A stretch of DNA of 64,000 bases, taken from the NCBI GenBank assembly GCA_963674965.2, contig CAXXFL010000004.1, forward strand, positions 288,001 to 352,000. Reading direction: 5' to 3'. The notes below the pieces were generated by a model. The model did no database searches. It saw nothing but the letters and a program-made list of their open reading frames with translations, and was not told the origin of the DNA. Shown piece after piece: positions 1 to 42,923 of the stretch (position 1 is the stretch's first letter; each line of letters opens with the position of its first letter). Source of the DNA: a bacterium. Lineage in GTDB: Bacteria > RBG-13-61-14 > DATKZS01. The position numbers and the translations under genes were made by a program.

Positions 1-1068
1 GGGGACTCGGCCGGTGACCTGGACGGCGACGGCCTTTCCAACCTCTCCGAGTACGCCGCGGGGGCCGATCCCTGCGACCCGGACACGGACGACGACGGGC
101 TCTGCGACGGGGCCACCTCCCTTTTCGACGGCATGACCCCCATATGCGTGGCCGGGGAGGACATGGACGGAGACGGCGTGGTCGATCCCACCGAGACCGA
201 CCCGACCCTGGCCGACACCGACGGCGACGGCCTGGACGACCCGGGCGAGATCGACGCGGGGACCGACCCGCGCGACTGGGACACGGACGACGACTACCTG
301 CCGGACTGGTACGAGTTGGATAACGCGGGCCGGACGACGGACCCCCTCGATCCGCTCGACCCGAGCGACGGCCTCACGGCGGACTTCGACTCCGACGGCA
401 ACCCCAACTGCCACGAGTACTGGAACGGGACCGACCTGTGGACCGAGAACGTGGACGGCGGCACGGGCTGTTTCTGCTGGGCCGACTCGGGCAGCACCGT
501 CTCGGCCGACGGCATCATCTCTCCCCTCGACGTGAGCGCCCTCAGTTCCCGCGTTTCTCTTAAGAGCGTTTCCTATACCGGGATACTCCCCAATAACGGC
601 GACTCCCAGGAACTGGACATGGACGAGATCATCTCGCCCCTGGACCTTAGCGTCCTCAAGCAGATGGTCGCCCTTCAAACGACCGCGGGCAACCCGAGCA
701 TACCGGTCGAGATCGAACTGGTGGGGTCATCCACCATAACGGCGGACGTCGGGTCTACCGTGGGCATAACGGTGGGGGTGAAAAACGCGACGAAATACTC
801 GGCGGCCTTCGGCGTGATCTTCAAGATCGACGAGTCGTCCTCGACCGGAAGCGCCCACCTTCTCGGGGGAGAAGGCGAGGCCGGTGGGGGAAGATACGAC
901 GTCTCGGGCGCCATCGCCTCGGGTGGAAGGTCGTCGGTCACGGTCAGCGTCGAGGCGGCCGGGACCGTTTACGTAGACGTTACGCTGCCCGGATGCGGCG
1001 AGGACGGCAAAGGGAGGTATTTCCCGGGGCTGGCCGAGGATGGGCTGGTCACGATCATAGCTCAATAA
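1..1068 (+). CDS. C-terminal part (5' truncated by window) of a giant acidic surface protein: DxDxDG Ca-binding (TSP3-like) repeats, dockerin-like module, Ig-like C-terminal domain
   Basis: Frame is open from base 1 (GDSAGDLDGDGLSNLSEY...). Contains DTDGDG repeats and the paired loops DGIISPLDVSAL / DMDEIISPLDLSVL. Paralogous to the C-terminus of 1121-7240. Confidence 0.85.
   Translation, partial: GDSAGDLDGDGLSNLSEYAAGADPCDPDTDDDGLCDGATSLFDGMTPICVAGEDMDGDGVVDPTETDPTLADTDGDGLDDPGEIDAGTDPRDWDTDDDYLPDWYELDNAGRTTDPLDPLDPSDGLTADFDSDGNPNCHEYWNGTDLWTENVDGGTGCFCWADSGSTVSADGIISPLDVSALSSRVSLKSVSYTGILPNNGDSQELDMDEIISPLDLSVLKQMVALQTTAGNPSIPVEIELVGSSTITADVGSTVGITVGVKNATKYSAAFGVIFKIDESSSTGSAHLLGGEGEAGGGRYDVSGAIASGGRSSVTVSVEAAGTVYVDVTLPGCGEDGKGRYFPGLAEDGLVTIIAQ
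328..738 (+). repeat. 411-bp direct repeat, copy 1 (identical to 6497-6907)
   Basis: Base-by-base comparison by eye found no mismatch from ggccggacgacgg to ccaccata; offset 6169. Confidence 0.9.
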
Positions 1069-1120
1069 GGATTGAGTTCGGCATTTTTCTGGTCCCCGAG
1101 TGGGGAGGGGAGGAACGGCC

Positions 1121-4100
1121 ATGAGAATCGCGAGGACGATTTGGTTGGCCGCGTGCTTATTGGCCGCGGCCTGGACGGTATTCGCGGGCCAAGACGCGCG
1201 CGCCAAAAGTCTTTACATCGACGACTCGGCGGCCCCGGCCTCGGCCGGTCCCGGCGTCGAGTTCGAGGTGGCCGTCAACGTGGACATGGAATACGACACC
1301 CTCAAAAGTTATTCCATTCCCGTTTTCTATGACAGGACGGCCCTCGAGTTCATGAGCGCCAGGTCCGGTTCCGACCAGGAACTCGCGGCCCCCATCGCGG
1401 CTGACGGCTACTACTACGGTTACATCGAGACTCAGGACCAGTCGAACTACGCCCAGTCCTGTTCCTCGACCGGGCTTATCACCCTCATGTATCTTAAGTT
1501 CAGGATCCTGCCCGAGGCGGCCCCCGGCTATGGCGCCTATATTTACGTCGGCGACAGCGTGGAGTTGATCGACTGCTACAATGAGGACCAGACCCAGAGC
1601 CTGCCGCCCTGGCCCTGGGACGGCGCGACCGTTCTGGTGGCGGGCCCTCCCATCGGCTCCTACGGGGTAAATAACTTCATGGACCTCGACGGCGACGCCG
1701 CTCCCGACGAAACCGACGCCGAGACCCTGAGAAAAATCGTCTACAACCTGGTGGGCACGAACGAGTTGGGACTGTTGAGCGTCAACGCCAGGAACTGCGA
1801 CGTCAACGGAAACGCCGTGGCCGACGCCTACGACGTGGGCCGGTTCGACGCTCTTATCCGGCCGGTCCGGACCATCCACTCGGGAGACGACGGCCTGTGT
1901 CAGAGCCAGGCCCAGGGCGACGACGTCCAGGACGTCGAGGTGGGAAACGGCCTGCCCAACTCGCTGGGCGTGGGTCCCGGCTTCAACTGCGTGATCGACA
2001 CCTCGCCCTCCGGCGACGACGTCCTCTCCGGCAACCGCGTGTTGACCGGACTCAACGGGGTCTGCGAGACCGTGGCCCAGGGAGACGACGAACAGATAAT
2101 CCCCTACCAGGCCGGCTCGCCCCGGGGCCCGTGCGTTTCGCCCGGCCCCGACCAGACCCTGTCCACCGGGACCTCGGTGGACGACCAGATGGTGGAGGAC
2201 CCCAAGACCTATCTGGACATGCTCGACTTCGCCCCCGCCAAGGGAAACCCCTATTACATGGAGTTGATCGAGCCCGGCTCGACCGTGTACATGAGCTCGC
2301 CCAGGCCCACGCCCATCACCGTGGCCATCTACGACGAGAACGGCAAGCCCAAGACCGGCCTGTCGCCCATCTTCAGCGTCGAGAACACCAGCGGGGCCTT
2401 TCTTGACGGTTCCTCCACCGGGACCACCTACCTCAGCAACGTCGAGTCCGACTCTTACCAGGGACCCGAGGCCAAGGCCGAGGGACAAATCACGGTCATG
2501 TTCCTTCCCGGTACCGCAAACAACGGCTTGAACGTGGTCCAGATATATCTGCCCGGCGACTCGAGCAAGGACATACCCGATCTCGGGCCCCTTTACGCCA
2601 CCTTTAAGGTGTTCGATCAGCCCGAAAGGCATCCCACGCATCTTGCGATTTCGGCTCCTTTCCCCAGCGTGAACGTGGGCGAGGAGACGGAGCTTATCCT
2701 TACGCTCACGGACGGGTCCTATCCGGTGCACGGCATGGCGGACAGGATAAAGCTGACCTCGCGCCGGAACGTCCTGGCCGGCCAGGACCTGGCCAAGTTC
2801 GGCGACAGGCGCGTCACCACCCTGGCCCTCGAGGACTTCGAGAACCAGTCCTTTGGCGGTTTCCTTAACTACCCGGTGAGCGGCGAGCTGGCAATCGACT
2901 CGGACAAGGCCGGCTACTTCGGACATTACGCGGTCAGGGCGACCCACGAGACCGGGGGCGGGCCCTACATGGAGGCGTCCTATAACACCTCCGGGTACGA
3001 TGAAATACACGTTTCCTACCAGTGGGCCTTTCAACAGAACCTGAGCTTGCCCGTTTTCGACGCGCCCTTCATCGTCCAGTACTCGGACAACGGCAGCAAC
3101 TGGCGGGTCCTCAGAAAGGCCGACTCCTACGAGGACTACCAGGGAGGAAACGGCAAGTGGATTTCCGAGAGCTTTAACCTTTCCAATATCGAGGGGGTAA
3201 ACGACAACGTTTTATACCTCCGCTTCCTTTTCAACGTCGGGGCGGGGGATGGATACCCTCAATCCATATTCGTGGACAACGTCGGGATATACGGGGTAAA
3301 GACCATATTCGAGGAGGACTTCGAGAGCTACTCGGCCAACTATTTCCCCGGCGACACCCTCATGCTCATGAACTTCGTCAACTCCGGCGCCGACGGAATA
3401 CTGGACACTACTCCCCTGGCCTCGGACGACGCTCTTTTCGGACAGGGATACGGCAAGCCCAACTCGACCATCATCATCGGCGGCCTTAACGGCGTTATCG
3501 ACACCATGAGCGCCAACGACGACGTGGGAGGGGGCTTCGCGGTGACCTCCGGTCCCGACGGGGTGGCCGACACCTACGCCCAGGGCGACGACTTCCAGGT
3601 CATCGGCTACGGGGAGGGCGAGCCTTTCGCCCGGGCCATAGCTCCCGGCTCGGACCAGGCTCTGGACTCGACGAGCGTTTTGGGCGACGACCAGCTTGTG
3701 GGTTCCCTTGGCTCCAGGCCCCGGATCGAGGTCGTCTCGGACGTATATCCTTCCATAGGCCCCGGCCTGGGAGCTAACGGCTCGGACAAATTCCTTTTCA
3801 TCGGGCGCGAATATGACGGCTCGACCATCGAGACTTATTCCGCCGGCGTCCAGGCGGACCTGGCCGGTTACGACCAGGTCGAGCTCGAGTTCTACATCCT
3901 GTGTCCCAACCAGGCCGACGCGGGCGTTCCCAGCCAGGTCCCGCCCGTTCCGGCGCAGGAGACGGCCGTCGAGGTCAGCGACAACGGCGGCCATTCCTGG
4001 GTCAGGGTATGGGACAACGAGGGCTCGAACTCCGCTACCTGGTCCCGGCATGAGATCGTTCTCCAGGACGACGGCCGCTTCAACCTGACCGACGACCTGC

Positions 4101-7100
4101 TCATCCGGTGGGTGGCCACCATGGACGGGGCGGAAAGCGGCCCCGACCCGGACGGCGTTTACCTTGACAATATTAAAATCAAGGCCGTCGATCCCCTCCC
4201 CGACCGGTTCGGGCCGGTGGTGGACACGCTCGATTACAACGGGACCTACAAGGTCAAGATGAAGTCGAGCCTGGCCGGCTCGGCCGAGGTCTCGGCCATT
4301 TACTGGCCCGAGGTGGTTGACCACTCCCTCGGCGACGCGCCCGTTTTCGGCTCATCCGTCGCCAGCGTCCTCGTCAACCAATTAAAGGCGGACCCCCACA
4401 CGACCAAGCTCATTCCTTCCAGTTTCGAGTTCAAGGCCTGCGAGAGCAAAGAGTTCATGGTGGTGGGCGCCCTGACCACGACCCCCACCGGCCGGGTCGA
4501 GGACCTGACCGAGTATTACGACCTCAAGGTGGTGGGACCGGCCCGACAGACGGCCCCCGGCGTGGTGACGGCCGACTGTTTCCTGGGGGACGACAAGGTG
4601 GATATCTTCATTTTCGCCGAGCCCAACGTGGAGGGGCTATACGACCCGGGAGGAGGAGGATCGGGGTCCCAGACGGGCGACGTGTCGGGACGCGTATACA
4701 AGCCGACCTTCGCCGGCGCGGGGGACGCCCCCATCTGGCTGGACATAGGCGGCGGAGACGTCATCTATTCCCATACCGACTCGCAGGGGTTCCTCTTTTT
4801 TGGCGACGTGCCGGCGGGATCGGGCTACACGATAAAGTCGTCGCTCGAGGGTTACACCCAGAACTCGAAGACCATCACGGTCAACGCCGGGTCCAACACC
4901 TCGACCAGCATTATCCTGCAGTCGGGGGCCAACTTCGATGGGGACGCGCTTTCGGACTCGCTGGACACGGACAAGGACAATGACGGCGTTACCGACTCGG
5001 CCGAGTCGGGAGAGGGCTCGTCCAACTACGATCCCGACACCGACGGGGACGGCCGACCCGACTCGAGCGACGACTTCCCCAACGACCCTGACGAGTGGCT
5101 GGACACGGACGGGGACGGCACGGGCGACAACTCGGACACGGACGACGACGACGACGGTATTTCGGACTCGGAGGAGAGCGTTCCCGGCACGGACGGCTAC
5201 GTTACCGATCCTCTCGACCCGGACACGGACGGCGGGGGAGAGGAGGACGGCTCCGAGGTAAGCGGAAGCCGTGACCCGACGGACGACTCGGACGACTCGG
5301 GAGGTGACTCCGACTCGGACGGATTGATAGACGACTACGAGACCGACACGGGCACGTACGTGGGGCCCCAGAACACGGGATCGGACCCCTACGACTCGGA
5401 CAGCGACGACGACGGCCTGACGGACGGGGCCGAGGTCAACACCCACGAGACGGACCCGAACGAGGCGGACACGGACTCGGACGGCGTTTTCGACGACGTC
5501 GAGACCTCGGGCTGCATGGACCCGAACCTGGCCGACACGGACGGCGACGGCCTTAACGACGGGGTCGAGGACGGGGACACGGACGGGGTGGTGGACTCGG
5601 GCGAGACCGACCCCTGCGACGCGGACAGCGACGACGACGGGATACCCGACGGCTACGAGGTCCAGCACGGGTTGTCGGTCCTGGCCAACGACGCCGCCGG
5701 AGACCTTGACGGCGATTCCCTTACCAACCTGGCCGAGTACGGCTCCGGTACATCGGCCGACGACGCGGACAGCGACGACGACGGCATGGGCGACGGCTGG
5801 GAGGTCAAGGCCTCCTCCTGCGGTCTCGATCCCCTGGCGGGAGACTCGAGCTCGGACGCCGACGCCGACGGTCTCAAGAACCTTTACGAATACGTTCTGG
5901 GCGCCGATCCCTGCGACCACGACACCGACGGGGACGGGTTCTGCGACGGGGACACGGCCACGTACGACGGGGACACGGTCCTTTGCGTCGCGGGCGAGGA
6001 CATGGACGATGACGGGGTCCGCGACTCGGACGAGACGGACGCGACCAAGGCCGACACCGACGGCGACGGGCTTTGCGACGGCGACACCTCGGTGTACGAC
6101 GGCTCGACGCTGATCTGCTCTCGGGGGGAGGACCTTGACCGGGACAAGACGGTGGACCCGACCGAGACGGACCCGACGGTTTACGACACGGATGAGGACG
6201 GCCTCAGCGACGGCGTCGAGTACGGCCGCTCGACCGACCCCAGGGATTGCGACTCCGACGACGACGGGCTTTGCGACGGCGACGCCTCGGTGTACGACGG
6301 CTCGACCCTGATATGCTCGAGCGGCGAGGACCTGGACGGCGACGGCGCGGTCGACCCGGGCGAGACCGACCCGATGGACCCGGACACGGACGACGACGGC
6401 CTTAACGACGGGGAGGAATCGAATTACGGAGCCGATCCTCTGGACTGGGACACCGACGACGACGAGATACCCGACTATTACGAGGCGCTCAACTACGGCC
6501 GGACGACGGACCCCCTCGATCCGCTCGACCCGAGCGACGGCCTCACGGCGGACTTCGACTCCGACGGCAACCCCAACTGCCACGAGTACTGGAACGGGAC
6601 CGACCTGTGGACCGAGAACGTGGACGGCGGCACGGGCTGTTTCTGCTGGGCCGACTCGGGCAGCACCGTCTCGGCCGACGGCATCATCTCTCCCCTCGAC
6701 GTGAGCGCCCTCAGTTCCCGCGTTTCTCTTAAGAGCGTTTCCTATACCGGGATACTCCCCAATAACGGCGACTCCCAGGAACTGGACATGGACGAGATCA
6801 TCTCGCCCCTGGACCTTAGCGTCCTCAAGCAGATGGTCGCCCTTCAAACGACCGCGGGCAACCCGAGCATACCGGTCGAGATCGAACTGGTGGGGTCATC
6901 CACCATATCGGCCCAGGTGGGGTTCACCTGCCGGATAACGGTGGGAGTGCTAAACGCCTCGTCCAACTACACGGCCGCCATGGGCGTGATCTTCGAGCTT
7001 GACGGGGACAGCTCGACCGGCGACGCGGTGATACTCGGCGGCGAGGGGGGCGCGGGGGAAGGACGATACGACGTCTCGGGCGCCATCGCCTCGGGAGGAC

Positions 7101-7240
7101 GCTCGAGCGTGGTCCTCAGGATCGAGAGCGCGGGCACTATTTTCGTGGACGCCCGGCTTCCCGGATGCGGCTCGGGCGGAAAGGGACGCTACAGTCCCGG
7201 CGTGGCCAAAGCACGGGTGGCGACGGTTACCGCCGATTGA
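1121..7240 (+). CDS. Giant secreted multidomain surface protein (~2039 aa): signal peptide, cohesin-like, dockerin-like, Ig-like, two jelly-roll-like, carboxypeptidase-regulatory-like, DxDxDG repeats, C-terminal dockerin-like + Ig-like
   Basis: ATG 1121 follows a GGGGAGG SD; signal peptide ends ...QDARA. Cohesin-like pattern (EFEVAVNV..YSIPVFYDRTALEF..LMYLKFRI..DGATVLV). Dockerin-like DLDGDAAPDETDAETL..DVNGNAVADAYDVGRF. Long Asp-rich repeat region. Confidence 0.88.
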   Translation: MRIARTIWLAACLLAAAWTVFAGQDARAKSLYIDDSAAPASAGPGVEFEVAVNVDMEYDTLKSYSIPVFYDRTALEFMSARSGSDQELAAPIAADGYYYGYIETQDQSNYAQSCSSTGLITLMYLKFRILPEAAPGYGAYIYVGDSVELIDCYNEDQTQSLPPWPWDGATVLVAGPPIGSYGVNNFMDLDGDAAPDETDAETLRKIVYNLVGTNELGLLSVNARNCDVNGNAVADAYDVGRFDALIRPVRTIHSGDDGLCQSQAQGDDVQDVEVGNGLPNSLGVGPGFNCVIDTSPSGDDVLSGNRVLTGLNGVCETVAQGDDEQIIPYQAGSPRGPCVSPGPDQTLSTGTSVDDQMVEDPKTYLDMLDFAPAKGNPYYMELIEPGSTVYMSSPRPTPITVAIYDENGKPKTGLSPIFSVENTSGAFLDGSSTGTTYLSNVESDSYQGPEAKAEGQITVMFLPGTANNGLNVVQIYLPGDSSKDIPDLGPLYATFKVFDQPERHPTHLAISAPFPSVNVGEETELILTLTDGSYPVHGMADRIKLTSRRNVLAGQDLAKFGDRRVTTLALEDFENQSFGGFLNYPVSGELAIDSDKAGYFGHYAVRATHETGGGPYMEASYNTSGYDEIHVSYQWAFQQNLSLPVFDAPFIVQYSDNGSNWRVLRKADSYEDYQGGNGKWISESFNLSNIEGVNDNVLYLRFLFNVGAGDGYPQSIFVDNVGIYGVKTIFEEDFESYSANYFPGDTLMLMNFVNSGADGILDTTPLASDDALFGQGYGKPNSTIIIGGLNGVIDTMSANDDVGGGFAVTSGPDGVADTYAQGDDFQVIGYGEGEPFARAIAPGSDQALDSTSVLGDDQLVGSLGSRPRIEVVSDVYPSIGPGLGANGSDKFLFIGREYDGSTIETYSAGVQADLAGYDQVELEFYILCPNQADAGVPSQVPPVPAQETAVEVSDNGGHSWVRVWDNEGSNSATWSRHEIVLQDDGRFNLTDDLLIRWVATMDGAESGPDPDGVYLDNIKIKAVDPLPDRFGPVVDTLDYNGTYKVKMKSSLAGSAEVSAIYWPEVVDHSLGDAPVFGSSVASVLVNQLKADPHTTKLIPSSFEFKACESKEFMVVGALTTTPTGRVEDLTEYYDLKVVGPARQTAPGVVTADCFLGDDKVDIFIFAEPNVEGLYDPGGGGSGSQTGDVSGRVYKPTFAGAGDAPIWLDIGGGDVIYSHTDSQGFLFFGDVPAGSGYTIKSSLEGYTQNSKTITVNAGSNTSTSIILQSGANFDGDALSDSLDTDKDNDGVTDSAESGEGSSNYDPDTDGDGRPDSSDDFPNDPDEWLDTDGDGTGDNSDTDDDDDGISDSEESVPGTDGYVTDPLDPDTDGGGEEDGSEVSGSRDPTDDSDDSGGDSDSDGLIDDYETDTGTYVGPQNTGSDPYDSDSDDDGLTDGAEVNTHETDPNEADTDSDGVFDDVETSGCMDPNLADTDGDGLNDGVEDGDTDGVVDSGETDPCDADSDDDGIPDGYEVQHGLSVLANDAAGDLDGDSLTNLAEYGSGTSADDADSDDDGMGDGWEVKASSCGLDPLAGDSSSDADADGLKNLYEYVLGADPCDHDTDGDGFCDGDTATYDGDTVLCVAGEDMDDDGVRDSDETDATKADTDGDGLCDGDTSVYDGSTLICSRGEDLDRDKTVDPTETDPTVYDTDEDGLSDGVEYGRSTDPRDCDSDDDGLCDGDASVYDGSTLICSSGEDLDGDGAVDPGETDPMDPDTDDDGLNDGEESNYGADPLDWDTDDDEIPDYYEALNYGRTTDPLDPLDPSDGLTADFDSDGNPNCHEYWNGTDLWTENVDGGTGCFCWADSGSTVSADGIISPLDVSALSSRVSLKSVSYTGILPNNGDSQELDMDEIISPLDLSVLKQMVALQTTAGNPSIPVEIELVGSSTISAQVGFTCRITVGVLNASSNYTAAMGVIFELDGDSSTGDAVILGGEGGAGEGRYDVSGAIASGGRSSVVLRIESAGTIFVDARLPGCGSGGKGRYSPGVAKARVATVTAD
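6497..6907 (+). repeat. 411-bp direct repeat, copy 2 (identical to 328-738)
   Basis: Direct comparison with 328-738. Confidence 0.9.
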
Positions 7241-17466: not shown

Positions 17467-17541
17467 ACAAGAAGAATCGCAAGCGCTACAATAAAAAGCT
17501 TCGAAAGAAGCGGGAAAAAGAATCTTTAATCACGTTTATAT

Positions 17542-19717: not shown

Positions 19718-19745
19718 GCCGGGCCATCCCTTATGTCGTTTAGGC

Positions 19746-29710: not shown

Positions 29711-29772
29711 TGACACTTCCTTTCGATCCTAAAGCCCTTCGGCCTTGGCGACTGACGTATCGCGCCACGAAA

Positions 29773-30936: not shown

Positions 30937-30956
30937 GAGAATTCCTCAACCCGGTC

Positions 30957-32378: not shown

Positions 32379-33418
32379 GAGTTCTCCAGGGCCGCCATCT
32401 CGCGCCGGCTTAGCCCGTAAGCCTTAAGCCACGCGGCCATGGTCCCGGGAGCCACGGCCCGTTTTCTTTTCCATTCCCGCCGAAGGGAAAGGTCGGTCCT
32501 CGCTCGGCCAAGCGCCGCAAGGTAGGCCCTGCAAATGGACCATAAAACCGCCGGAATCGAGAAACCCTTCCCCGTTTTATCGTCCCCGTCGCCCGCCGCC
32601 TTCCCGGCTACCTTTAACGCTCCTCTAAACATGGCCCAGTATCTCATCGCCGTAAAAATCGGGCTAAGCATGACGTAGCGCGCCGGGTAGTAGCGGATGA
32701 GGATGGCGATCCTGTTCCGTTCCACCAGGTAGGCCTTGGCCGGGCTGATCATGCCAAGAGTGCCGCCCCCTCCCCGGTGGTAAACGTAAGCGTCGTCGGC
32801 CAGCGCGCATTCATATCCCATCAGCCTCACCTTAAGGCCAAGGTCGGTGTCCTCGCTGTATGCGAAGAAATCCTCGTCAAAGCCGCCTATCCGGCTGAAA
32901 ACCTCACGCTTTATCATCATGGCGCAGCCGCTGGGTAAGAGGACCGATGGACCAAAGACCTCCGCTTCCCTCCTGAAATGATACGCCCCCCTGCTCATTC
33001 CGTCCAGTCCCAGTTTGACTCCGACGTTGTCAAGCGCGCCGTCGTCGCGGCTAACCAAAATCCTGCACGCCGCCATGGCCGCGTTCCGCTCGAGTGAAAC
33101 GGCCCTCAAGGTCCGCTCGACCCAGCGGGGGTCCGCGACCGCGTCGTTATTGATAAGGGCCAGCCATTCTCCCGAGGCCTCCCTGGCCCCGGCGTTGTTG
33201 CCTCCCGCGAACCCAAGGTTCTCGTCCAGTTCCACAATCTTGACCCAGCCCCCGTGAGCGCGTCGGAGGAGGTCAGCGGAGCCGTCGCTGGACCCATTAT
33301 CCACGACGATTATCTCGTGAAGTGGGACCGTTTGACGGACCAGTGAATCCACGCACTCGATGAGCATGCGCGCCCGGTTATAGTTGACGACGATCGCGGA
33401 GACCGCGGGATACCGCAT
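32375..33418 (-). CDS. GT2 family glycosyltransferase (rhamnosyltransferase-like)
   Basis: IVVNYN, VVDNGSSDGS, NLGFAGGNN, NNDA, GGFDEDFFAYSEDTDL. Confidence 0.92.
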   Translation of the reverse strand: MRYPAVSAIVVNYNRARMLIECVDSLVRQTVPLHEIIVVDNGSSDGSADLLRRAHGGWVKIVELDENLGFAGGNNAGAREASGEWLALINNDAVADPRWVERTLRAVSLERNAAMAACRILVSRDDGALDNVGVKLGLDGMSRGAYHFRREAEVFGPSVLLPSGCAMMIKREVFSRIGGFDEDFFAYSEDTDLGLKVRLMGYECALADDAYVYHRGGGGTLGMISPAKAYLVERNRIAILIRYYPARYVMLSPIFTAMRYWAMFRGALKVAGKAAGDGDDKTGKGFSIPAVLWSICRAYLAALGRARTDLSLRREWKRKRAVAPGTMAAWLKAYGLSRREMAALENS

Positions 33419-34419
33419 TATTTCCCTCGTCTTTTCCGCGCCGCGGCGGCGTGAAAATCGGACCCGATAAGGCCCGAGGACTCGAGGTCCATCTCGAGAT
33501 CGCAAAGGCGTCCAAGCACCTCGAGGTCTTCTTCCCGATCCATGGCAAAATTACCCGCGATGCCGTCAAGAAGTGGATGAAGAAGGGCGCCTCCATAAGG
33601 CTGATCCTCGACCATATCAAACTTCTCCCGGACAAGCGGAAGAATTTCCTCCGACCTTATCGCCTCAAAAGGTGAATCGAGACCGCTACCGTCAACGGGT
33701 GGAACATAGACGCGCCTTTTATAGCCAAAGCCTTTCCTCAGGTCCTTGGCGTACCTTGGATAAAGGCTTTGCAAAACATCATTAATAACGCGCAACTGAT
33801 CTTTTTCCCACTGGAATTTCGACGGACCCACGTACTCGTTGAATATCAGGAGTCCTCCCGGCAACAGCGCCTTTTCAACCTCGGTCAGGACCCTCTCGAG
33901 ATTATCCACGTGATGGAGGCTACTCGCGAAAAAAACCACATTGTAGGACTCGGGCTCGAAACTCGCCTCGTTCACGTCGCATACCTCAAAAAATATCGGA
34001 GCGCCCTTTAATCTCGCCCGCGCCTTGGCGATAGCCTCACTGGACAGGTCGATCGAGTGGAAGCTTATCTCCGCGCCGAGTGAAAGGACGTGCTTCTCCA
34101 GGTCCCCAAAACCGCAGCCCACGTTCAAGGCTTTCCCTATCCCACCTGGCATATGCTTTTCAATAAAATACTCCAGCCAGTTCAAAATCGGATTTCCCGT
34201 TACTCTTATATTATTCCTTTCCCTGATAAAGGGATGATCCTGCCAATTGAGTATCTTGTCCTGGCCTCGGGAGATCGACCAATGCCTTGCCTCCTCCAGC
34301 GCGTGGTCTTCATTCCTCAAGGCCACCCGCGCCTGGTCCCTTAGCAATACATAAGCGCGCCAGGGCTGGTGGAGGGCCAAACCTACCGCCTTCTTGACCT
34401 TGATCCCGCGTGGCTTCAT
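33418..34419 (-). CDS. Class I SAM-dependent methyltransferase
   Basis: LNVGCGFG, IDLS, SLHHV, PGGLLIFNEYVGP. Confidence 0.88.
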   Translation of the reverse strand: MKPRGIKVKKAVGLALHQPWRAYVLLRDQARVALRNEDHALEEARHWSISRGQDKILNWQDHPFIRERNNIRVTGNPILNWLEYFIEKHMPGGIGKALNVGCGFGDLEKHVLSLGAEISFHSIDLSSEAIAKARARLKGAPIFFEVCDVNEASFEPESYNVVFFASSLHHVDNLERVLTEVEKALLPGGLLIFNEYVGPSKFQWEKDQLRVINDVLQSLYPRYAKDLRKGFGYKRRVYVPPVDGSGLDSPFEAIRSEEILPLVREKFDMVEDQPYGGALLHPLLDGIAGNFAMDREEDLEVLGRLCDLEMDLESSGLIGSDFHAAAARKRRGK

Positions 34420-35594
34420 CGTCTTTCCTCGATCAGCTCGCGGTAAAGGGAAGTGAGTTTTTCTCCTAGTTTGTCCATCGAGCGCTCATCCATGACTTTT
34501 TGCCTGCCCTCCCGGCCAAGCTTATCCCGAAGGTCCGCGTCATGGACAAGCCGAGAAACTCCCCTCGCCAGGGAGATAGCGTTTTGTTCTTGATCATCCG
34601 AAAGCTTCGCCCAAGCCGCAGACTCTCCAAGAAGTTCCCGGTTCAGGGGCGTGTCAAAAGCGACGACCGGCAACCCACAGGCCATATAATTGAGTACCTT
34701 GCCGTTCGATTCCGTCCGGGCGATTTTCGGCGCCAGGGCCAGATCGCCCAGGTTAAGATAATCGCGGGCCTGGAAATAATTCACCCTACCCGTGAAGGTC
34801 ACATGGTCTTCAACGCCCAGGGCGACGGCTTTTTCCGGATAATCTCCCAGAGGGTAGCCCATCACCAGGAAATGTACGTTCTCTTTTCTCTCGGCCATTA
34901 TTCCGGCGGCTTTTAAAATCAGGTCCACTCCCTGGTACTCGTTTATAAGGCCGAGATATACAATGATAGTCCGGTCTTGAGGCAAAGACAGGCCGCGTCT
35001 TAACTCATCGCGGGGGTCCCCGGGTCGAAAAGACTCCGAGTCCACGTGGTCCGCCATGGCGCGCGCCCTAAGGCCCCTGGCCGCCAGTTCCTTAGCCATA
35101 ACCTCGGCGCTGGTAATGACCGCGTCCGGCAGAGAGTCGATCATGCCCTCAATCTTCCTCAAGGCCCTGGCCTGCGCCTTATCCTTGGAAACGAAACCGT
35201 GATGCTCGCTTTCCGAGGTCATGCTGCCCTGATAATCGAACAACAAGGGAACGCGGAGTGACTTGCCGATAATATAACCGATAAGACATCCCTCGTGTAG
35301 ATGAGCGTGAATAACGTCGGGCTTATACTTCGCGGCCACAAAAAAGGCCTTGGCCAATAGCAGGGCGTCAAGATAGATTTTATGCCACGAGGGCCCCGCC
35401 TCCAATTTGTTGTAATTTGATATCCTTGGCGTCCTAGCCGTATCGACGCCGGGCGGGTCGTTTCCAATGGGGTAAGTAAGCACGACAACTTCGTGGCCGC
35501 GTTTTTGTAACGCCTTCACCTGTTCGTATATTCTTACGTGACAGCCTCGGTCGGAGAAAAACGGCGTTGGCGCTATCATCAACGCTTTATACAT
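34416..35594 (-). CDS. GT4 family glycosyltransferase
   Basis: APTPFFSDRGCHVRI, HAHLHEG, ESNGKVLNYMACGLPVV. Confidence 0.9.
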   Translation of the reverse strand: MYKALMIAPTPFFSDRGCHVRIYEQVKALQKRGHEVVVLTYPIGNDPPGVDTARTPRISNYNKLEAGPSWHKIYLDALLLAKAFFVAAKYKPDVIHAHLHEGCLIGYIIGKSLRVPLLFDYQGSMTSESEHHGFVSKDKAQARALRKIEGMIDSLPDAVITSAEVMAKELAARGLRARAMADHVDSESFRPGDPRDELRRGLSLPQDRTIIVYLGLINEYQGVDLILKAAGIMAERKENVHFLVMGYPLGDYPEKAVALGVEDHVTFTGRVNYFQARDYLNLGDLALAPKIARTESNGKVLNYMACGLPVVAFDTPLNRELLGESAAWAKLSDDQEQNAISLARGVSRLVHDADLRDKLGREGRQKVMDERSMDKLGEKLTSLYRELIEERR

Positions 35595-36567
35595 CGGCCT
35601 TTTTCCAAATCTCCTTGACGATGTAAGTGGGCTTTTTCTGAGATTCGTAGTAGGTCCTGACCATGACCTCGCCGATCAGACCCAGCATAAGAAGCTGAGT
35701 GCCCACGATCGAGAAAAGAACGCCGATGATGAGGAAAGGGTTTCCGGTCATATCGGTCCCCGAGGCGAATTTCATAATCAGGAGCAGGGCGAAGGATATG
35801 ATCCCGAGGAAAATGGAGGTCAACCCTACCAGGCCGAAAAAATGCGAAGGTCTCGTGAAATAACCCGAGAAAAACTTGAGCGTCACAAGATCTAGTATTA
35901 CGCTCAAGGCGCGCCAGTTGGTGTATTTCGATTTGCCCGAGACGCGGGCATGGTGCTTGACTTCGACCTCAACGATCGACGCGCCCATCAGGTGAGCGAG
36001 AACGGGAATCATGCGGTGCATCTCGCCGTATAAGGATATCTCCCTGATTATCTCCTTGCGATACGCCTTGAGAGTGCAACCGAAGTCTTTAATCTTCACC
36101 CCCGTGAGAATTCTTATAAGAAAATTGCCTAATATCGAAGGCAGTCGCCTCATGATAAAGGAGTCTTTGCGGTCACGCCTCCAGCCGTTGACCACGTCGT
36201 AACCCTCTTCCAGCTTGGCAAGCATCATCGGTATATCGCTCGGGTCGTTTTGGCCGTCCCCGTCCATGCTGATGATCATCTCGCCGCGGGCGTGATCGAA
36301 ACCGGCGGCAAGAGCTGCCGTCTGTCCAAAGTTCCTCCTGAAAGATATCACCGTGACCGAACCGTCATGATCGGAAATATTCTTAAGCGCCTCGCGAGTG
36401 CCGTCAACGCTGCCGTCGTCAATAAATACTATCTCGGTCTCTCCATCTATTTTTTCGCAAGCGGATTTGATCTTGTTGTAAACTCCCACCACGTTGCGGT
36501 TCTCGTTGAAAAAAGGGACAACAATGGTCAGATAGCAGGAAGATTTTTTATCGGGTGGATAGGCCAT
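35587..36567 (-). CDS. GT2 polyprenol-phosphate glycosyltransferase (ArnC/GtrB/DPM-like) with two C-terminal TM helices
   Basis: VVPFFNE, DDGSVDGT, RNFGQTAA, MDGDGQNDP, DFGCTLKAYR. Confidence 0.92.
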   Translation of the reverse strand: MAYPPDKKSSCYLTIVVPFFNENRNVVGVYNKIKSACEKIDGETEIVFIDDGSVDGTREALKNISDHDGSVTVISFRRNFGQTAALAAGFDHARGEMIISMDGDGQNDPSDIPMMLAKLEEGYDVVNGWRRDRKDSFIMRRLPSILGNFLIRILTGVKIKDFGCTLKAYRKEIIREISLYGEMHRMIPVLAHLMGASIVEVEVKHHARVSGKSKYTNWRALSVILDLVTLKFFSGYFTRPSHFFGLVGLTSIFLGIISFALLLIMKFASGTDMTGNPFLIIGVLFSIVGTQLLMLGLIGEVMVRTYYESQKKPTYIVKEIWKKADV

Positions 36568-36749: not shown

Positions 36750-39700
36750 TTACTTGTAAACGACGAAGGTCGAGTCGCTGGCGACCTGGGTCTGAGCCAG
36801 ATCGACCTGCTGGACGTCGAAGTTGTTCCAGTCGAAGAGACCGGACTCGATTCCGCCGTACTCGTAATCATTAGTGTTGTAGACCAAGGTCGCGATCCGC
36901 CAGGATAGCTGCGTGGCGTTGCCGGCCGCTATGCCGTCGAACAGATCGGGGATTACGCCGGTGACGCCGTTAAGAGTCGTCGCTCCCGGGTCCACGTCGG
37001 GGACGTGAACGGTGATGGTGGCGCTGTCCAGGACTGGTCCGCTTACCGACCAGAAGTCGTTCTCTTTGCAGTGATAGCCGCCGGGAGGTCCGCCGGCCCA
37101 CTCGTCGATGATGCACATGCCGCGAGCCTGAGCGCGGATAACCCTGTAACGGATCAGGTTATCGCCCTCGAGACCCAGAGCGCTCCAGTCGGCGTTGACC
37201 GTCAAGAGCTCGTTGCTGAGCACTCCGGTGATCCTGCGCCTGGTGTTAAGCACGTTATGGCGCTCGCTGTTGATCCAGAGGGAGTCTCCAACCTGAACGC
37301 CCGCGTCCATAAACCTGGGGCCGTAGGAGCCCTGGGTGTCCTGGAAGTAACGAATGCCGCCGGTGGTATAAGCCCTGCCGTAGATGCTCGAAACCTTGGC
37401 CTTCGCGGAGAACTTGTCCTCGAAAGCGTTCGAGGTGCTTCCGTTGATGGTCATCACGTCCGCCTCGTACAGGGTGGATTCCCAGGCGTGTAGGGTCCTT
37501 GAAGTGTTGTTCACGAATCCGTTCACGCGGAACCTGAGGAAGAGCCTGTTCCAGTCGTCGCTGGTGTCGGCGATCATGGAGTTGCCCGCCAGGGTGGTGG
37601 TCATGTCCCTTCTCAACTCGCCGTTCCTGTTGCAGGTGGTCGAGTTGTTCGGGGTGTTGGACCACTGAGGGGCCGGATAGATGTAGCGGTCCGGGGACGG
37701 AGTGATGGCCCTGGGAAGGTTCAGGAAGTCGTCGATACGGATGTTCTCGTTGCCGCTGGACTCGGGAGCACCGATGCTCCAGACGGTGACGAGCGAACCG
37801 GGGTTCGATCCGATTTCGAGAAGTCCGCCTTCAACCAGGCCCGCGTCGCCGGTCGGCGTGTTGGTGAGCGATCCTCTGGAGAGCACGTGGATGACCGCGT
37901 AGTTGGTGGGACCGCCGTCCTGCCTGGCCTGGAAGTCAATATAGGCCCCAGGCTCGGCCCAGGTCGAATTGAGACCGGAGTGCTGAATGCTCACGACCTC
38001 GGTGTCGGCGCTGCCGGACCAAGGCCTGATGTCGCGGCTGCCCATCTTGGTGCCGGACGACTGGAAGAAGCCAACCTGGAAGATGGTGAACTCGGCGTCG
38101 TCGATCTTGATGTTGAGGGAAAGACCCGTAACGCCAATACCGGTTCCCACGCCGAAGTCCGCGCCGCTGGCTATGATCTGACTCTTCCTGTAGAAGCGGT
38201 CGTCCCAATCGGTGCCAAGCTCGGAGTCGGTGCGGTTGGGTATGGCGTACTGGTAGCCAAGCTGCCTAACCGAGTCTCTCCTGGCCGGGTCGATGGGAAG
38301 GTCCGAGTCGACGGTGAAGAGTATCTTCCGGTTGACGCCGGTGTCCGGGTCGTAGCCGTAGACGTCATTGTCCCAGTTTTCACGAATGTTGTATCTAAAG
38401 TTGGCCGCCGTGCCGGTGGCGATGATGGTCTCGCCGTTTATCAGGCCGGCGGGCACCGTGGCCTGGGTTAGGCCGATCGCGCATCCGTAGATCGGGAACG
38501 CGAAGAGGTCCAGACCGCCCGTAACCGAGAAGTTGGTGGCGTTGGCCAAGGCGCCAACGTTCCAGACTATCCTGTTTTCACCCGGAGTGTAGGTCCAGAT
38601 TTCCCACGAGGTCTTACCCGGATTGCTGGTCCAACTGTTGCAAGGCACGGTCCAGTTGTTGCGCACGATCTCGGGAGCGACGAGGTTGACGGGCAAAGCG
38701 GCTTTCAGGGCCACCTCGATGCTGTCAAGGTTGTCCAGACACAGGGATATGGATATCTCGTTGTCGGGCGTCATGAGAAGGTTGTCAAGGCCGCCGCTGA
38801 TCTGGTCGGTGCTCTTGAGCGTGGGAATCACGATGGCGGCGCGCAGGTAGACCGGGGGCGCGAAGAGCCGCCTGGCCCTTTCTTGCCTTTGAGCCGCGAT
38901 GTTGCTGTTAAAGGAAGCTATTGGGATGCTGCCCTGAATCCTGCCTTTGTACCTGCCGATCTGGGCGCCCTTGTTGAGCTTGAGATCGAGAGCGAGGTCG
39001 CTGGCGTCAAGGCCGTACCAGCTACGATACGCGAAGTTGCTGTAGTTGCCCGCGCGATACTGAGCAAGGCTGGCGCCTTCCTCCATCTTCGGGCAACGCT
39101 CGCCGCCGCACTTGTAGCCCATGGTAATCTCGTCGATGGGCAGAGGATCGAGGGTCATGGTCAGGTTGCCGGTGGCGTCCGTGAAGTATTCCCTCAGCGT
39201 GCCGCCCTGGATGACCTGGACGTAGACCTTGCCGGCGATAGGAATGTTCCTGTCGTTGTCAACGGCGGTCAGGGTGACCGTGCCGTCGCCGACGCTCGAG
39301 GCGCCACTGTCGTAATCGAGGCCGCCCACGTAGCCGCCGCCAACGCCGCCGGTGCTGGGAGCGCTGGACCAGGCCGTGTGCAGGCTGCCACTGGCGCTGT
39401 CGTTGCCATAGGCGTTGCTGACCGCGATCGAGCAGTTGTAGTCGTCGTCGCCGTTGTAAGAGCTAGTCGGCACGCACTGGGCGTCCGGCCAGTTGGTCAG
39501 GTTGCAGTTGAAGTTCACAACCGAGGAGTCCGACACCGAGGTGCAGGTCACGGTCGAACCGGTCGGCTGTCCTTCTCCAGCGTCGAATACCACCGTCAGG
39601 TTCTGGTTAACGTGAGCGTTCAGCCTGAACCTGTCAGCGTAATCCAGCGGGAACACCGACAGAATCACCGGGGCTGAGCCGCCGCTTACTATGATATCGG

Positions 39701-42700
39701 TCTCGTCATATCCGCCGGCATAAGTGGCGGAAATCGTTGCCGATCCGGGAGTACTCCCAGCAGAATAGGTCGGATTGGAGAAACTTCCGACGCCGGAATG
39801 ACTAAGAGAGGCGCCGCAGTCATCCACGCAACCATCGCCAAAGTCGGCCGAGCAGGAGAAAACGGTCGATCCACCGGTCGATAAAGTAACGGTGCTGTCC
39901 GGCTGCACGTCCACGGTGGCCGTGGTCTCGTTGTTGATGGCCTGGGCGGTGAAGTCGTCGTTGATCGCGCCGCCGCAGGTGGCCGTGTAGGTGTAGTCGC
40001 CGCAAGCCTCGTCGGTCACGTTGTCCGTGTCGTCGCAGCCCTGGCCGTCGGTGCAAAGGCAGGTGGCCACGCCGCGGTCGCAACCGTCAACGCTGGACTC
40101 GTAGTTGGCCGTGCAGTTGATGGCCGTGCCGTCGTTAACGTCCGAGCAGGAGCCAACGACCGAGTCGGCCGCGTCGTTGTCCGTAAAGGACGCCGTGAAG
40201 TCGTCGTTGATCGCGCCGCCGCAGGTAGCCGTGTAGGTACCCGGGGCGCAGCCCTCGTCAACCACGTTGTCAACGTCGTCGCAGCCCTGGCCGTCAGAGC
40301 ATACGCAGGAAGCCGCGCCGCGGTCGCAACCGTCAACGCTGGACTCGTAGTTGGCCGAGCAGGAGATGGCGTCGCCGTCGTCAACGCTCGAGCAAGAACC
40401 CACGACCGCGTCGGCCGCGTCGTTGTCGGTGTAAGAGGCGGAGAAGTCGTCGTTGAGGGTCGAGCCGCCGCAGGTAGCCGTGTAGGTACCCGGGGCGCAG
40501 CCCTCGTCAACCACGTTGTCAACGTCGTCGCAGCCCTGGCCGTCAGAGCATACGCAGGAAGCCGCGCCGCGGTCGCAACCGTCGACGCTGGACTCGTAGT
40601 TGGCCGAGCAGGAGATGGCATCGCCGTCGTCAACGCTCGAGCAGGAACCCACGACCGCGTCGGCCGCGTCGTTGTCCGTGTAAGAGGCGGAGAAGTCGTC
40701 GTTGAGGGTCGAGCCGCCGCAGGTAGCCGTGTAGGTACCCGGGGCGCAGCCCTCGTCAACCACGTTGTCAACGTCGTCGCAGCCCTGGCCGTCAGAGCAT
40801 ACGCAGGAAGCCGCGCCGCGGTCGCAACCGTCGACGCTGGACTCGTAGTTGGCCGAGCAGGAGATGGCATCGCCGTCGTCAACGCTCGAGCAGGAACCCA
40901 CGACCGCGTCGGCCGCGTCGTTGTCCGTGTAAGAGGCGGAGAAGTCGTCGTTGAGGGTCGAGCCGCCGCAGGTAGCCGTGTAGGTACCCGGGGCGCAGCC
41001 CTCGTCAACCACGTTGTCAGTGTCGTCGCAGCCCTGGCCGTCAGAGCAGGTGCAGGAAGCCGCGCCGCGGTCGCAACCGTCGACGCTCGACTCGTAGTTG
41101 GCCGAGCAGGAGATGGCGTCGCCGTCGTCAACGCTCGAGCACGAACCCACGACCGCGTCGGCCGCGTCGTTGTCCGTGTAAGAGGCGGAGAAGTCGTCGT
41201 TGAGGGTCGAGCCGCCGCAGGTGGCCGTGTAGGTACCCGGGGCGCAGCCCTCGTCAACCACGTTGTCCGCGTCGTCGCAGCCCTGGCCGTCAGAGCAGGT
41301 GCAGGAAGCCGCGCCGCGGTCGCAACCGTCAACGCTGGACTGGTAGTTGGCCGAGCAGGAGATGGCGTCGCCGTCGTCAACGCTCGAGCACGAACCCACG
41401 ACCGCGTCGGCCGCGTCGTTGTCCGTGTAAGAGGCGGAGAAGTCGTCGTTGAGGGTCGAGCCGCCGCAGGTCGCCGTGTAGGTACCCGGGGCGCAGCCCT
41501 CGTCAACCACGTCGTCAACGTCGTCGCAGCCCTGGCCGTCAGAGCAGGTGCAGGAAGCCGCGCCGCGGTCGCAACCGTCAACGCTGGACTGGTAGTTGGC
41601 CGAGCAGGAGATGGCGTCGCCGTCGTCAACGCTCGAGCAGGAACCCACGACCGCGTCGGCCGCGTCGTTGTCCGTGTAAGAGGCGGAGAAGTCGTCGTTG
41701 AGGGTCGAGCCGCCGCAGGTGGCCGTGTAGGTACCCGGAGCGCAGCCCTCGTCAACCACGTCGTCAACGTCGTCGCAGCCCTGGCCGTCAGAGCAGGTGC
41801 AGGAAGCGGCGCCGCGGTCGCAACTGTCGGCCGAGGACTCGTAGTTGGCCGTACAGGAGATGGCCTCGCCGTCGTCAACCGCCGAGCAGGAGCCGACAAC
41901 CGTGTCGGCCACGTCGTCGTCGGCCACGTCCACGGTGGCGCCGTCGCTGAGGGAGCTGTAATCCGCGGTAACCACGCACTGGTAGGCGGAGCATCCCTCG
42001 GGGGCCTGAATGAGGCCGGCGCTAAGCAGGGTGCATCCACCGCTAACGCCCCAGGTGGCGGCCGAGGTCACGTCGCCGTCCACGCTGTGGGTTGCGGTAA
42101 GGGAGAGGGTCTCGCCGTCGTTGATCGACGCGGTCGAGGGGGCGACGGTGAGAGTGGCTGGAGGCACGGAGCCTCCTGGCAGAACGCTTACGAGCGCTCC
42201 GAGTATCTGCGTGTCGAACCTTCCGCCCTGTACTCCAAACTCGGAGTCGGCCGGAATGCGGGCCTGCACCTCGATGGTGTTGCCGCAGGTCATCTTGTGC
42301 AGGATGACGGAGGCGGGAGCGGCGGTGGCGCCGTTCCAGGCCCCGGTGTATCCGTAGGCCGCGGCCTCGGTAACCGTCTGGTTCTTGCCGCCGAAGGCGA
42401 CGGGCGTCGGGTCGAGGCCCTCGATGCGGGCCGCCGTGCATCCGCCCACCACCTCGAACACGACTCCCCAGCCGGCGCCGGGAATATTGGCCGTGTTGGC
42501 GGAGACGTTGCGCCTGTAGACGATCGCCTCGAGGGTAATGGTGTCGGCAGTTCCCATGTCGATGACGGTGGCTCCGTCAACGAGCGTCCAGGGCGCGCCG
42601 CTGTAGGCTATGCCCGTCGGGTAGGCCAGGTTAACCCAACCCTGTAGTCTCGAATAATCGAGAGGTGAAACGTTCTGGTCGCCGTCAAGGTCCTGGACTT

Positions 42701-42923
42701 GCCAGCTTGCCGGTTTACACCCCGCGTATCCACCCGAGCTAGACGCAAGTTGCGTCTTCATCTGAGTAGCGTCCAGAGGGTCTATAATTCCGTCGCACGC
42801 GCCCGCGTCGCCGAAATAGTTGGACCCTGGGAGCTCCTCTTGGGCGAATACTGGAGTGGCTACCAGACCCACGGCGAACAGCAGGGCTATCGCCATGGAA
42901 ATAAAGCCAAACCTTTTCATCAT
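36750..42923 (-). CDS. Giant secreted surface/S-layer-like protein (~2057 aa): signal peptide, N-terminal dockerin-like + Ig-like module, eight Cys-rich 83-aa repeats, large unknown C-terminal region
   Basis: AAGGAG SD before ATG 42923; signal peptide ends VFA. Dockerin-like GDAGACDGIIDPLDATQM..DLDGDQNVSPLDYSRL. Confidence 0.9.
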   Translation of the reverse strand: MMKRFGFISMAIALLFAVGLVATPVFAQEELPGSNYFGDAGACDGIIDPLDATQMKTQLASSSGGYAGCKPASWQVQDLDGDQNVSPLDYSRLQGWVNLAYPTGIAYSGAPWTLVDGATVIDMGTADTITLEAIVYRRNVSANTANIPGAGWGVVFEVVGGCTAARIEGLDPTPVAFGGKNQTVTEAAAYGYTGAWNGATAAPASVILHKMTCGNTIEVQARIPADSEFGVQGGRFDTQILGALVSVLPGGSVPPATLTVAPSTASINDGETLSLTATHSVDGDVTSAATWGVSGGCTLLSAGLIQAPEGCSAYQCVVTADYSSLSDGATVDVADDDVADTVVGSCSAVDDGEAISCTANYESSADSCDRGAASCTCSDGQGCDDVDDVVDEGCAPGTYTATCGGSTLNDDFSASYTDNDAADAVVGSCSSVDDGDAISCSANYQSSVDGCDRGAASCTCSDGQGCDDVDDVVDEGCAPGTYTATCGGSTLNDDFSASYTDNDAADAVVGSCSSVDDGDAISCSANYQSSVDGCDRGAASCTCSDGQGCDDADNVVDEGCAPGTYTATCGGSTLNDDFSASYTDNDAADAVVGSCSSVDDGDAISCSANYESSVDGCDRGAASCTCSDGQGCDDTDNVVDEGCAPGTYTATCGGSTLNDDFSASYTDNDAADAVVGSCSSVDDGDAISCSANYESSVDGCDRGAASCVCSDGQGCDDVDNVVDEGCAPGTYTATCGGSTLNDDFSASYTDNDAADAVVGSCSSVDDGDAISCSANYESSVDGCDRGAASCVCSDGQGCDDVDNVVDEGCAPGTYTATCGGSTLNDDFSASYTDNDAADAVVGSCSSVDDGDAISCSANYESSVDGCDRGAASCVCSDGQGCDDVDNVVDEGCAPGTYTATCGGAINDDFTASFTDNDAADSVVGSCSDVNDGTAINCTANYESSVDGCDRGVATCLCTDGQGCDDTDNVTDEACGDYTYTATCGGAINDDFTAQAINNETTATVDVQPDSTVTLSTGGSTVFSCSADFGDGCVDDCGASLSHSGVGSFSNPTYSAGSTPGSATISATYAGGYDETDIIVSGGSAPVILSVFPLDYADRFRLNAHVNQNLTVVFDAGEGQPTGSTVTCTSVSDSSVVNFNCNLTNWPDAQCVPTSSYNGDDDYNCSIAVSNAYGNDSASGSLHTAWSSAPSTGGVGGGYVGGLDYDSGASSVGDGTVTLTAVDNDRNIPIAGKVYVQVIQGGTLREYFTDATGNLTMTLDPLPIDEITMGYKCGGERCPKMEEGASLAQYRAGNYSNFAYRSWYGLDASDLALDLKLNKGAQIGRYKGRIQGSIPIASFNSNIAAQRQERARRLFAPPVYLRAAIVIPTLKSTDQISGGLDNLLMTPDNEISISLCLDNLDSIEVALKAALPVNLVAPEIVRNNWTVPCNSWTSNPGKTSWEIWTYTPGENRIVWNVGALANATNFSVTGGLDLFAFPIYGCAIGLTQATVPAGLINGETIIATGTAANFRYNIRENWDNDVYGYDPDTGVNRKILFTVDSDLPIDPARRDSVRQLGYQYAIPNRTDSELGTDWDDRFYRKSQIIASGADFGVGTGIGVTGLSLNIKIDDAEFTIFQVGFFQSSGTKMGSRDIRPWSGSADTEVVSIQHSGLNSTWAEPGAYIDFQARQDGGPTNYAVIHVLSRGSLTNTPTGDAGLVEGGLLEIGSNPGSLVTVWSIGAPESSGNENIRIDDFLNLPRAITPSPDRYIYPAPQWSNTPNNSTTCNRNGELRRDMTTTLAGNSMIADTSDDWNRLFLRFRVNGFVNNTSRTLHAWESTLYEADVMTINGSTSNAFEDKFSAKAKVSSIYGRAYTTGGIRYFQDTQGSYGPRFMDAGVQVGDSLWINSERHNVLNTRRRITGVLSNELLTVNADWSALGLEGDNLIRYRVIRAQARGMCIIDEWAGGPPGGYHCKENDFWSVSGPVLDSATITVHVPDVDPGATTLNGVTGVIPDLFDGIAAGNATQLSWRIATLVYNTNDYEYGGIESGLFDWNNFDVQQVDLAQTQVASDSTFVVYK
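39932..41921 (-). repeat. Eight tandem ~249-bp coding repeats (83 aa, 8 Cys each)
   Basis: gagaagtcgtcgttgagggtc recurs at 40441, 40690, 40939, 41188, 41437 and 41686 (period 249), plus two variant units. Confidence 0.95.

Follow-up and report, generated by a model that had tools for sequence, protein, structure and literature searches.

The question raised by this locus is what the giant secreted proteins of an uncultured bacterium attach to when each of them carries a calcium-loop module shaped like a dockerin. The locus is a 64,000-nucleotide stretch of DNA (the window; positions 288,001 to 352,000 of contig CAXXFL010000004.1) from a genome of phylum RBG-13-61-14, termed G000 here (G000:C4:288001-352000) and compared with its relatives G001 to G012. 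An original prediction made from the window had described three giant proteins, here A, B and C, as a non-cellulosomal set that clips together, or onto a scaffold, by cohesin-dockerin contacts. The three giant genes and all five modules it named (dockerins at 478-672, 6647-6841 and 42630-42815, one cohesin and one dockerin-like pair) were found where it had placed them (Table 1). Judged by its sequence, the dockerin with the immunoglobulin (Ig)-like domain behind it is probably a genome-wide surface-display tag, and this tag is very likely to bind a shared receptor of the cohesin type.

A dockerin-Ig tag and its recognition face

The tag is a dockerin followed by an Ig-like domain of ~125 aa, together ~205 aa. 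The dockerin contains two copies of a calcium loop plus helix with D, N or S at loop positions 1, 3, 5, 9 and 12; D12 is present in both repeats in 71-72 of 72 sequence clusters, and D or N at position 5 in 65-68 of 72. A short insert is found in the first calcium loop of the G000 C-terminal class. The modelled tag has the three-helix dockerin fold and the N-terminal domain of giants A and B forms a nine-stranded cohesin sandwich, so that the modules are predicted to fold as cohesin and dockerin, the shapes originally proposed for them. Pfam recognized part of this: the giant A cohesin passes PF00963 (28.1 bits, cut-off 24.1), whereas the giant B cohesin, which lies in the window, scores 15.3 and the window dockerins score at most 21.4 bits against Dockerin_1 (PF00404, cut-off 22.9), which is passed by one of 13 matches in the genome (23.6). 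Neither the tag profile nor a single cohesin retrieved anything from PDB sequences, Foldseek with the tag model returned Ig-like and other non-dockerin folds only, the ESM Atlas gave only leads below 0.9 for the tag, and NCBIfam gave no match to it.

A hidden Markov model (HMM) seeded with the two distinct modules of the window matched 29 of 51,083 open reading frames (ORFs), all at E <= 4.3e-21 and with no weaker tail, which excludes chance occurrence. With one further ORF that carries two divergent copies, the genome-wide count that the original prediction had proposed making comes to 30 tagged genes in G000. The tag stands at the C-terminal end of 26 of the 29 ORFs, at the N terminus of two and internally in one, and is present on 20 of the 51 ORFs of G000 that encode at least 1500 aa. 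Most tagged proteins begin with Sec signal peptides by eye, and no membrane anchors were found on them. Pfam domains in the 29 ORFs include TSP3 repeats, LVIVD propellers (8), FG-GAP, PKD and C-type lectin domains, along with peptidases of families C1, C13, C25 and M6. Because no glycoside hydrolase (GH) family exceeds its cut-off in these 29 ORFs, which include long stretches without annotation, the system is classed as non-cellulosomal, as originally proposed. Pfam and our own profiles detected no multi-cohesin scaffoldin in G000, only two single-cohesin proteins, neither of which matches SLH or CBM3.

The tag occurs in 10 of 41 genomes, all of one order, and a divergent copy in an eleventh (G005) extends it to 11 of 11 genomes of that order; the profile search found it in none of the 30 genomes outside. 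In a protein library, 179 tag relatives reached E <= 0.001; of the 150 listed among these matches, most end in the tag.

The two repeats of a dockerin are more alike within a protein than under shuffled pairing, as determined from those aligned segments that contain both repeats (124 of 153), grouped into 72 clusters at 60% identity. This symmetry holds at positions 5, 7, 9, 10, 11, 14, 17, 18, 20, 21, 22 and 23 (z 4.8-11.4, and 5.7-11.4 at 7, 9, 10, 11, 14, 17, 18, 21 and 22), is weak at 8, 16 and 24 and is absent at 6, 13, 15 and 19. The pattern also appears at 50% clustering and follows a single helical face, which includes the recognition positions 10, 11, 17, 18 and 22 given in the accessible part of PMC6780208. 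Internal symmetry of recognition residues, which goes with dual binding (a subject of the accessible text of 10.1101/2019.12.19.882373), is thus present in the tag. In giant B, the two SPLD repeats differ at synonymous codons.

The residues on this face form a genome-specific code. Among the 29 modules of G000, 17 read SPL/SPL and 8 SPL/SAL, three contain DPL and one has a single match. The triplet common to N-terminal, internal and C-terminal tags is (S/D)PL in G000 and GPD in G001, whose three tags have one code; most tags of G002 and G004 read xSG and most of those in G007 GVP, and G003, where only the C-terminal class is represented, has LGS. Over the five published positions of 45 modules from 11 genomes (5 of the 26 C-terminal modules of G000 and, for the relatives, those among the matches listed), identity is 0.39 between classes within a genome and 0.15 within a class between genera, while the Ig domain shows the reverse (0.25 and 0.33, respectively). 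None of 1000 label shuffles attained the observed effect. Without G000 the code effect is 0.54 versus 0.09. A test on 39 of 44 modules had omitted five, four of them code misfits; with all 44 plus G005 the effect was weaker but persisted. The recognition face tracks the genome and not the protein class. Together with the symmetry this is as expected for one species-specific partner, and it supports selection for a shared binding partner.

The idea that the giants clip together or onto a scaffold is supported with respect to selection for a shared partner, and fails with respect to the three proteins as a unit: they account for only three of the 30 tagged genes, and giant C belongs to an order-wide family apart from A and B with a synteny of its own. 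A three-gene locus was likewise ruled out, because the genes between (7240-36750) are housekeeping, signalling, unannotated or glycosylation genes.

Candidate receptors and competing explanations

The host appears to be diderm, given its secretins and outer-membrane barrels. Tagged proteins would be exported by Sec and then cross the outer membrane; G000 has two secretins, one within a pilM-Q-like run. Ca2+ would then fold the dockerin and let it bind, in two alternative orientations, to a single receptor of the cohesin type that is specific to the species. This receptor would be an order-wide lipoprotein with a divergent, insert-rich, cohesin-like C-terminal domain, and through it the outer membrane would hold peptidases, adhesins of the propeller and lectin kinds, giants with TSP3 stalks and giant C. 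As for giants A and B, these would be clients by their tails and perhaps second-tier adaptors by their cohesin heads. In its full form, with the lipoprotein as anchor, this is a tentative account whose chances we would put somewhat short of even. A further elaboration seems unlikely: that a fast-diverging, self-specific dockerin code is the address label of the surface proteome throughout the order, captured by a lipid-anchored cohesin variant and extended by the cohesin-headed giants into branched or head-to-tail fibres, and that its turnover keeps enzymes and adhesins on kin only.

The lipoprotein family is recognized by a C-terminal domain with cohesin-like strands and large variable inserts, and has a lipobox by eye. 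Two collinear segments of this domain match the cohesin profile at 44.8 and 26.0, compared to best scores of 15.9 and 16.9 for 40 shuffled profiles, and also exceed reversed and Ig controls. A profile search located the domain in all 11 genomes of the order and in none of 140 others; the short-form copies of G004, G005, G008 and G009 had already been found when they were added to the profile. In G001 no other cohesin-like gene was found, and the codon usage of the lipoprotein gene in G000 lies at the 98.6th percentile of 2831 ORFs by a crude reference set. The lipoprotein is favoured as the anchor because it is present in all 11 genomes, while cohesin-headed giants were not found in three of the tag-bearing ones. 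Complex prediction with the lipoprotein C-terminal domain, the tag and two Ca gave 0.00 in two runs and carries no weight either way.

Lipid-anchored cohesins are in use in this order, since small lipoprotein cohesins directly follow a gene ending in another, short dockerin-like type (type B) in G002, G005 and G006. Neither the small cohesin nor the type-B dockerin was found in G000, and the pair was ruled out as the system of that genome. Two lipoproteins of ~450 aa (L169 and L170; G000:C2:334975-339826) have an N-terminal domain in common with the candidate anchor family. A 635-aa secreted protein (L028; G000:C3:434377-436284) carries two divergent, asymmetric dockerin-Ig modules and could be an adaptor.

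Several observations weigh against this account. The match to the cohesin profile covers 49+25 of 155 columns, the whole-profile comparison has a probability of 49, and the lipoprotein domain matches neither Pfam Cohesin nor any PDB sequence. The profile behind the 11 of 11 count was built from those same genomes, a gene that is core to the order co-occurs trivially with an order-wide tag, and the lipoprotein gene adjoins no tagged gene in the G000 neighbourhoods viewed. With respect to the code, non-face positions are also in smaller excess when G000 is left out (z 3.6), the 11 genomes are kin and not independent, and misfits include two modules in G007 and the two at G000:C3:434377. One family, f3, has no genome code; its N-terminal and internal classes differ (0.13 versus 0.16 shuffled), which means that it needs at least two receptors. 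Surface exposure of the tagged proteins is assumed.

It is also possible, if doubtful, that the receptor is instead the N-terminal cohesin of giants A and B, in which case the giants would form head-to-tail chains capped by the other tagged proteins and rooted perhaps via Doc', the dockerin-like pair behind the cohesin, or via a barrel. Their heads are clear cohesins, and the head of cohesin, Doc' and Ig domain is present in 10 of 13 genomes of the phylum, among them every genome in which a complete C-terminal tag class was seen (G000, G003, G004 and G007). A gene for a FadL/OmpP1/PorV-superfamily barrel (G000:C4:281619-283223; L001:11619-13223), with two paralogues on C6, lies directly upstream of giant A, as it does of the cohesin-headed giant in G002, G003, G005 and G009, and one gene further away in G007. 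Moreover, in the accessible text of 10.64898/2026.03.19.712371, neighbouring Chlorobium chlorochromatii proteins with a C-terminal dockerin and an N-terminal cohesin are modelled as binding. However, the head was not found in the tag-bearing drafts G001, G006 and G008 (97, 97 and 93% complete), of which G001 carries three tags of one code, so that the giants' cohesin is unlikely to be the sole receptor. Conversely, G011 and G012 do have the head, yet no tag turned up in them, the giant C homologue there being cut by contig ends. The two cohesin heads of G000 are only 35% identical though their clients have one code, and two unanchored single-cohesin proteins would be a poor scaffold for 30 clients unless they polymerize. 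In the giant B paralogue, the model gives no sign that Doc' docks in cis on its own cohesin (predicted template modelling score 0.62, with a disordered linker). A metagenome scan for the cohesin head returned nothing.

If the tag were instead a secretion or sorting signal, its reader would be a protein other than a cohesin, for instance the barrel or a TPR-CsgG protein, in the manner of the C-terminal domain of the type IX secretion system (T9SS). The tag does lie exactly at the end of 26 of the 30 tagged genes, and cargo such as peptidase C25 resembles that of the T9SS. The barrel matches the PorV family below threshold, and genes for tetratricopeptide repeat (TPR) and CsgG-domain proteins adjoin the barrel and giant locus in G005, G007, G009 and G012. 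The barrel, however, reaches 43.5 where PorV_fam requires 90, N-terminal and internal tags carry the same code as C-terminal ones, and twofold symmetry with fast species turnover is easier to reconcile with cohesin binding than with a transport step that is conserved, which together make such a signal improbable. A search for SprA gave no signal in any control genome. The CsgG-domain genes of G000 are located elsewhere (G000:C1:1442976-1448893).

Ca-dependent binding of the tags to one another, which would join the giants in a lattice or capsule particular to the species and make a separate receptor unnecessary, would also produce a common code within each genome and a symmetric face, and would suit tagged proteins that have no anchor of their own. 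We consider it distinctly improbable, as it leaves the cohesins and cohesin-like lipoproteins of the same genomes unexplained, does not fit the two codes side by side in family f3, and would need an anchor for the lattice anyway. Finally, some C-terminal modules are identical between paralogues, which indicates that DNA copying occurs within that class, but a structural calcium-binding cap homogenized by gene conversion and having no partner is highly improbable, since across classes the recognition face alone tracks the genome while linker and Ig domain track the class, and the adjacent helix positions 13, 15 and 19 have no within-protein symmetry.

Comparison with known systems

To our knowledge, most non-cellulosomal dockerins are annotations without partner evidence. 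In the present case, sequence evolution alone reveals a common species-specific binding face on proteins of three architectures, and supplies a set of naturally occurring plug codes (SPL, xSG, LGS, GVP, GPD and others) that may be orthogonal and for which candidate sockets can be named, in domains of 150-400 aa. If the favoured account of a lipoprotein receptor is true, much of the giant surface proteome of an uncultured diderm lineage is displayed with no need of SLH domains, sortase or membrane-spanning anchors, and protein assembly would gain new orthogonal connector pairs that depend on Ca2+.

The closest known complexes are those of Clostridium thermocellum OlpA and OlpC (PDB 3ul4 and 4dh2), in which type I cohesin-dockerin pairs serve single-cohesin surface anchors. 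By analogy, the system described here works like the single-cohesin anchoring system of a cellulosome and is not itself a cellulosome: searches found neither GH cargo nor a scaffoldin with several cohesins, and no CBM3 or SLH domain. It also differs in the Ig domain fused behind the dockerin and in having a lipoprotein as its proposed anchor.

Non-cellulosomal cohesin-dockerin systems have already been proposed in other lineages, as described in the accessible parts of the following sources. The planctosome of Nemodlikiaceae (PMC6461901) is likewise a sequence-based hypothesis with TSP3 repeats and peptidase cargo, and has a cohesin-bearing large protein and a dockerin-cohesin adaptor as here; its proposed anchor is a lamin-tail-domain protein and few components are named, compared to 30 tagged genes, a dockerin-Ig fusion and a measured genome-specific code in the present case. 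The cellulosome-like complex of Candidatus Stygibacter of the Cloacimonadota (PMC8542988) also has signal-peptide proteins with C-terminal dockerins and peptidase C25, but it combines a multi-cohesin/CBM scaffoldin bearing a CTD with GH cargo, neither of which was found here. Cag_2037 and Cag_2038 of C. chlorochromatii (10.64898/2026.03.19.712371) are large neighbouring genes that resemble giants A and B, one coding for an N-terminal cohesin and the other for a C-terminal dockerin, but form one pair of the RTX type I secretion kind with the modules on separate proteins, whereas the tag here is genome-wide. Dockerin-type giants of Omnitrophota (10.1101/2023.11.21.568195) similarly combine dockerins with TSP3 repeats in a proposed attachment role, with many dockerin repeats and transmembrane anchors per chain of at least 30,000 aa; the chains described here mostly bear a single tag, and no transmembrane anchor was found on them. 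What is new is that the dockerin is fused to an Ig domain and used across the genome, that a species code has been measured, and that a divergent receptor family can be put forward as a candidate. No literature on dockerins of this lineage was found, and the words "dockerin" and "cohesin" do not appear in the accessible text of PMC13170169, which names phylum RBG-13-61-14.

The giant genes and their surroundings

Table 1. Features of the window and of related loci. Positions without a prefix are those of the window; G and L prefixes denote genomes and extracted loci.
Feature	Position	Strand	Remarks
Giant A, 3' end (1922 aa)	1..1068	+	Gene G000:C4:283300-289068; start ~4.7 kb upstream of window
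Giant A C-terminal dockerin	478..672	+	SPL/SPL at repeat positions 9-11
Giant A terminal Ig-like domain	691..1065	+	
Giant B (2039 aa from ATG)	1121..7240	+	Tandem paralogue of giant A; Sec-type signal peptide by eye
Giant B N-terminal cohesin	1205..1648	+	
Giant B Doc'	1670..1864	+	Putative; divergent asymmetric dockerin-like pair right behind cohesin
Giant B Gly/Asp-rich insert domain, then Ig-like domain (2240-2617)	1865..2617	+	
Giant B Asp-rich TSP3-type calcium-repeat stalk	4931..6598	+	TSP3_bac 26 bits, cut-off 25
Giant B C-terminal dockerin	6647..6841	+	
Giant B terminal intimin/invasin-like Ig domain	6860..7237	+	
Glycosylation gene run directly downstream of giant C	28586..36567	-	GT2, GT4, methyltransferase, GT2, B12 radical SAM, GT4, epimerase
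Giant C (2057 aa from first ATG)	36750..42923	-	Signal peptide, N-terminal dockerin-Ig, Cys-rich repeat stalk, C-terminal head
Giant C C-terminal head (~970 aa)	36753..39674	-	Conserved
Giant C Cys-rich tandem repeats	39945..41921	-	Eight x 249 bp (83 aa), 94% matches
Giant C tag Ig-like domain	42174..42599	-	
Giant C N-terminal dockerin	42630..42815	-	DPL/SPL; Dockerin_1 21.4 bits, cut-off 22.9
Candidate anchor lipoprotein	G000:C3:192929-194791		
Fn3-stalked paralogue of candidate anchor	G000:C2:408334-411066		Three Fn3 domains
Small lipoprotein cohesins of relatives	L054:9760-10305, L058:3938-4501, L059:6333-6863		
TPR and CsgG-domain genes of relatives	L054:180-2354, L057:1-3980, L094:9504-12170, L096:3-1799		

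Giant A consists of a cohesin head, which lies outside the window, TSP3-type calcium repeats and a C-terminal dockerin-Ig tag. It is 46% identical to giant B across the N-terminal region, and the C-terminal dockerins of the two have the same protein sequence. As the original prediction had stated for giants A, B and C, no GH, SLH or transmembrane-anchor family exceeds its cut-off in them. The putative Doc' has helices at residues 169-179 and 208-218 in the paralogue model, with a predicted local distance difference test score of 61-77, and matches Dockerin_1 at E 0.15. The Ig-like domain that follows it in giant B is akin to the tag Ig (hhalign probability 58 over 104 columns). The Gly/Asp insert domain of the giants is also present in a 1543-aa lipoprotein-like protein with a hydrophobic C-terminal tail (L112; G000:C5:99214-103845), which has no Pfam match; this domain occurs on proteins of similar size in most genomes of the phylum.

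Giant C is a core gene, its head being matched in 11 of 13 genomes of the phylum; this head has no Pfam match at E <= 1 and none in the ESM Atlas. The glycosylation run downstream, which includes glycosyltransferase (GT) families 2 and 4, probably modifies giant C, and by eye a GT2-like gene stands directly behind the giant C orthologue in G001, G004, G005, G006, G007, G008 and G009. A role for giant C as a highly expressed S-layer subunit was considered and rejected, its codon usage being unremarkable (77th percentile). A paralogue of ~70% identity (L005; G000:C1:208867-214590) has an in-frame TAG after codon 326 of its ORF, which may reflect a pseudogene, read-through or a sequence error. 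Upstream of giant C, ~1 kb of intergenic DNA of low GC content (42924-43964) is possibly a long regulatory region.

Elsewhere in the window, a low-GC patch at 16699-19487 (44% in 18001-20000) contains four short ORFs with no Pfam or NCBIfam match. Among the untagged large proteins of G000, two acidic giants (G000:C3:23574-29639 and C5:76788-84659) have a different C-terminal domain of ~70 aa in common by eye. A 1666-aa acidic protein (G000:C4:358401-363401) ends in a Gly-rich, Cys-containing, hydrophobic and basic tail, which we take to resemble sorting tails of the MYXO-CTERM type. A run of very large untagged ORFs of up to 7102 aa occupies G000:C6:748616-896909, and some of their C termini are RHS-like or variable by eye.

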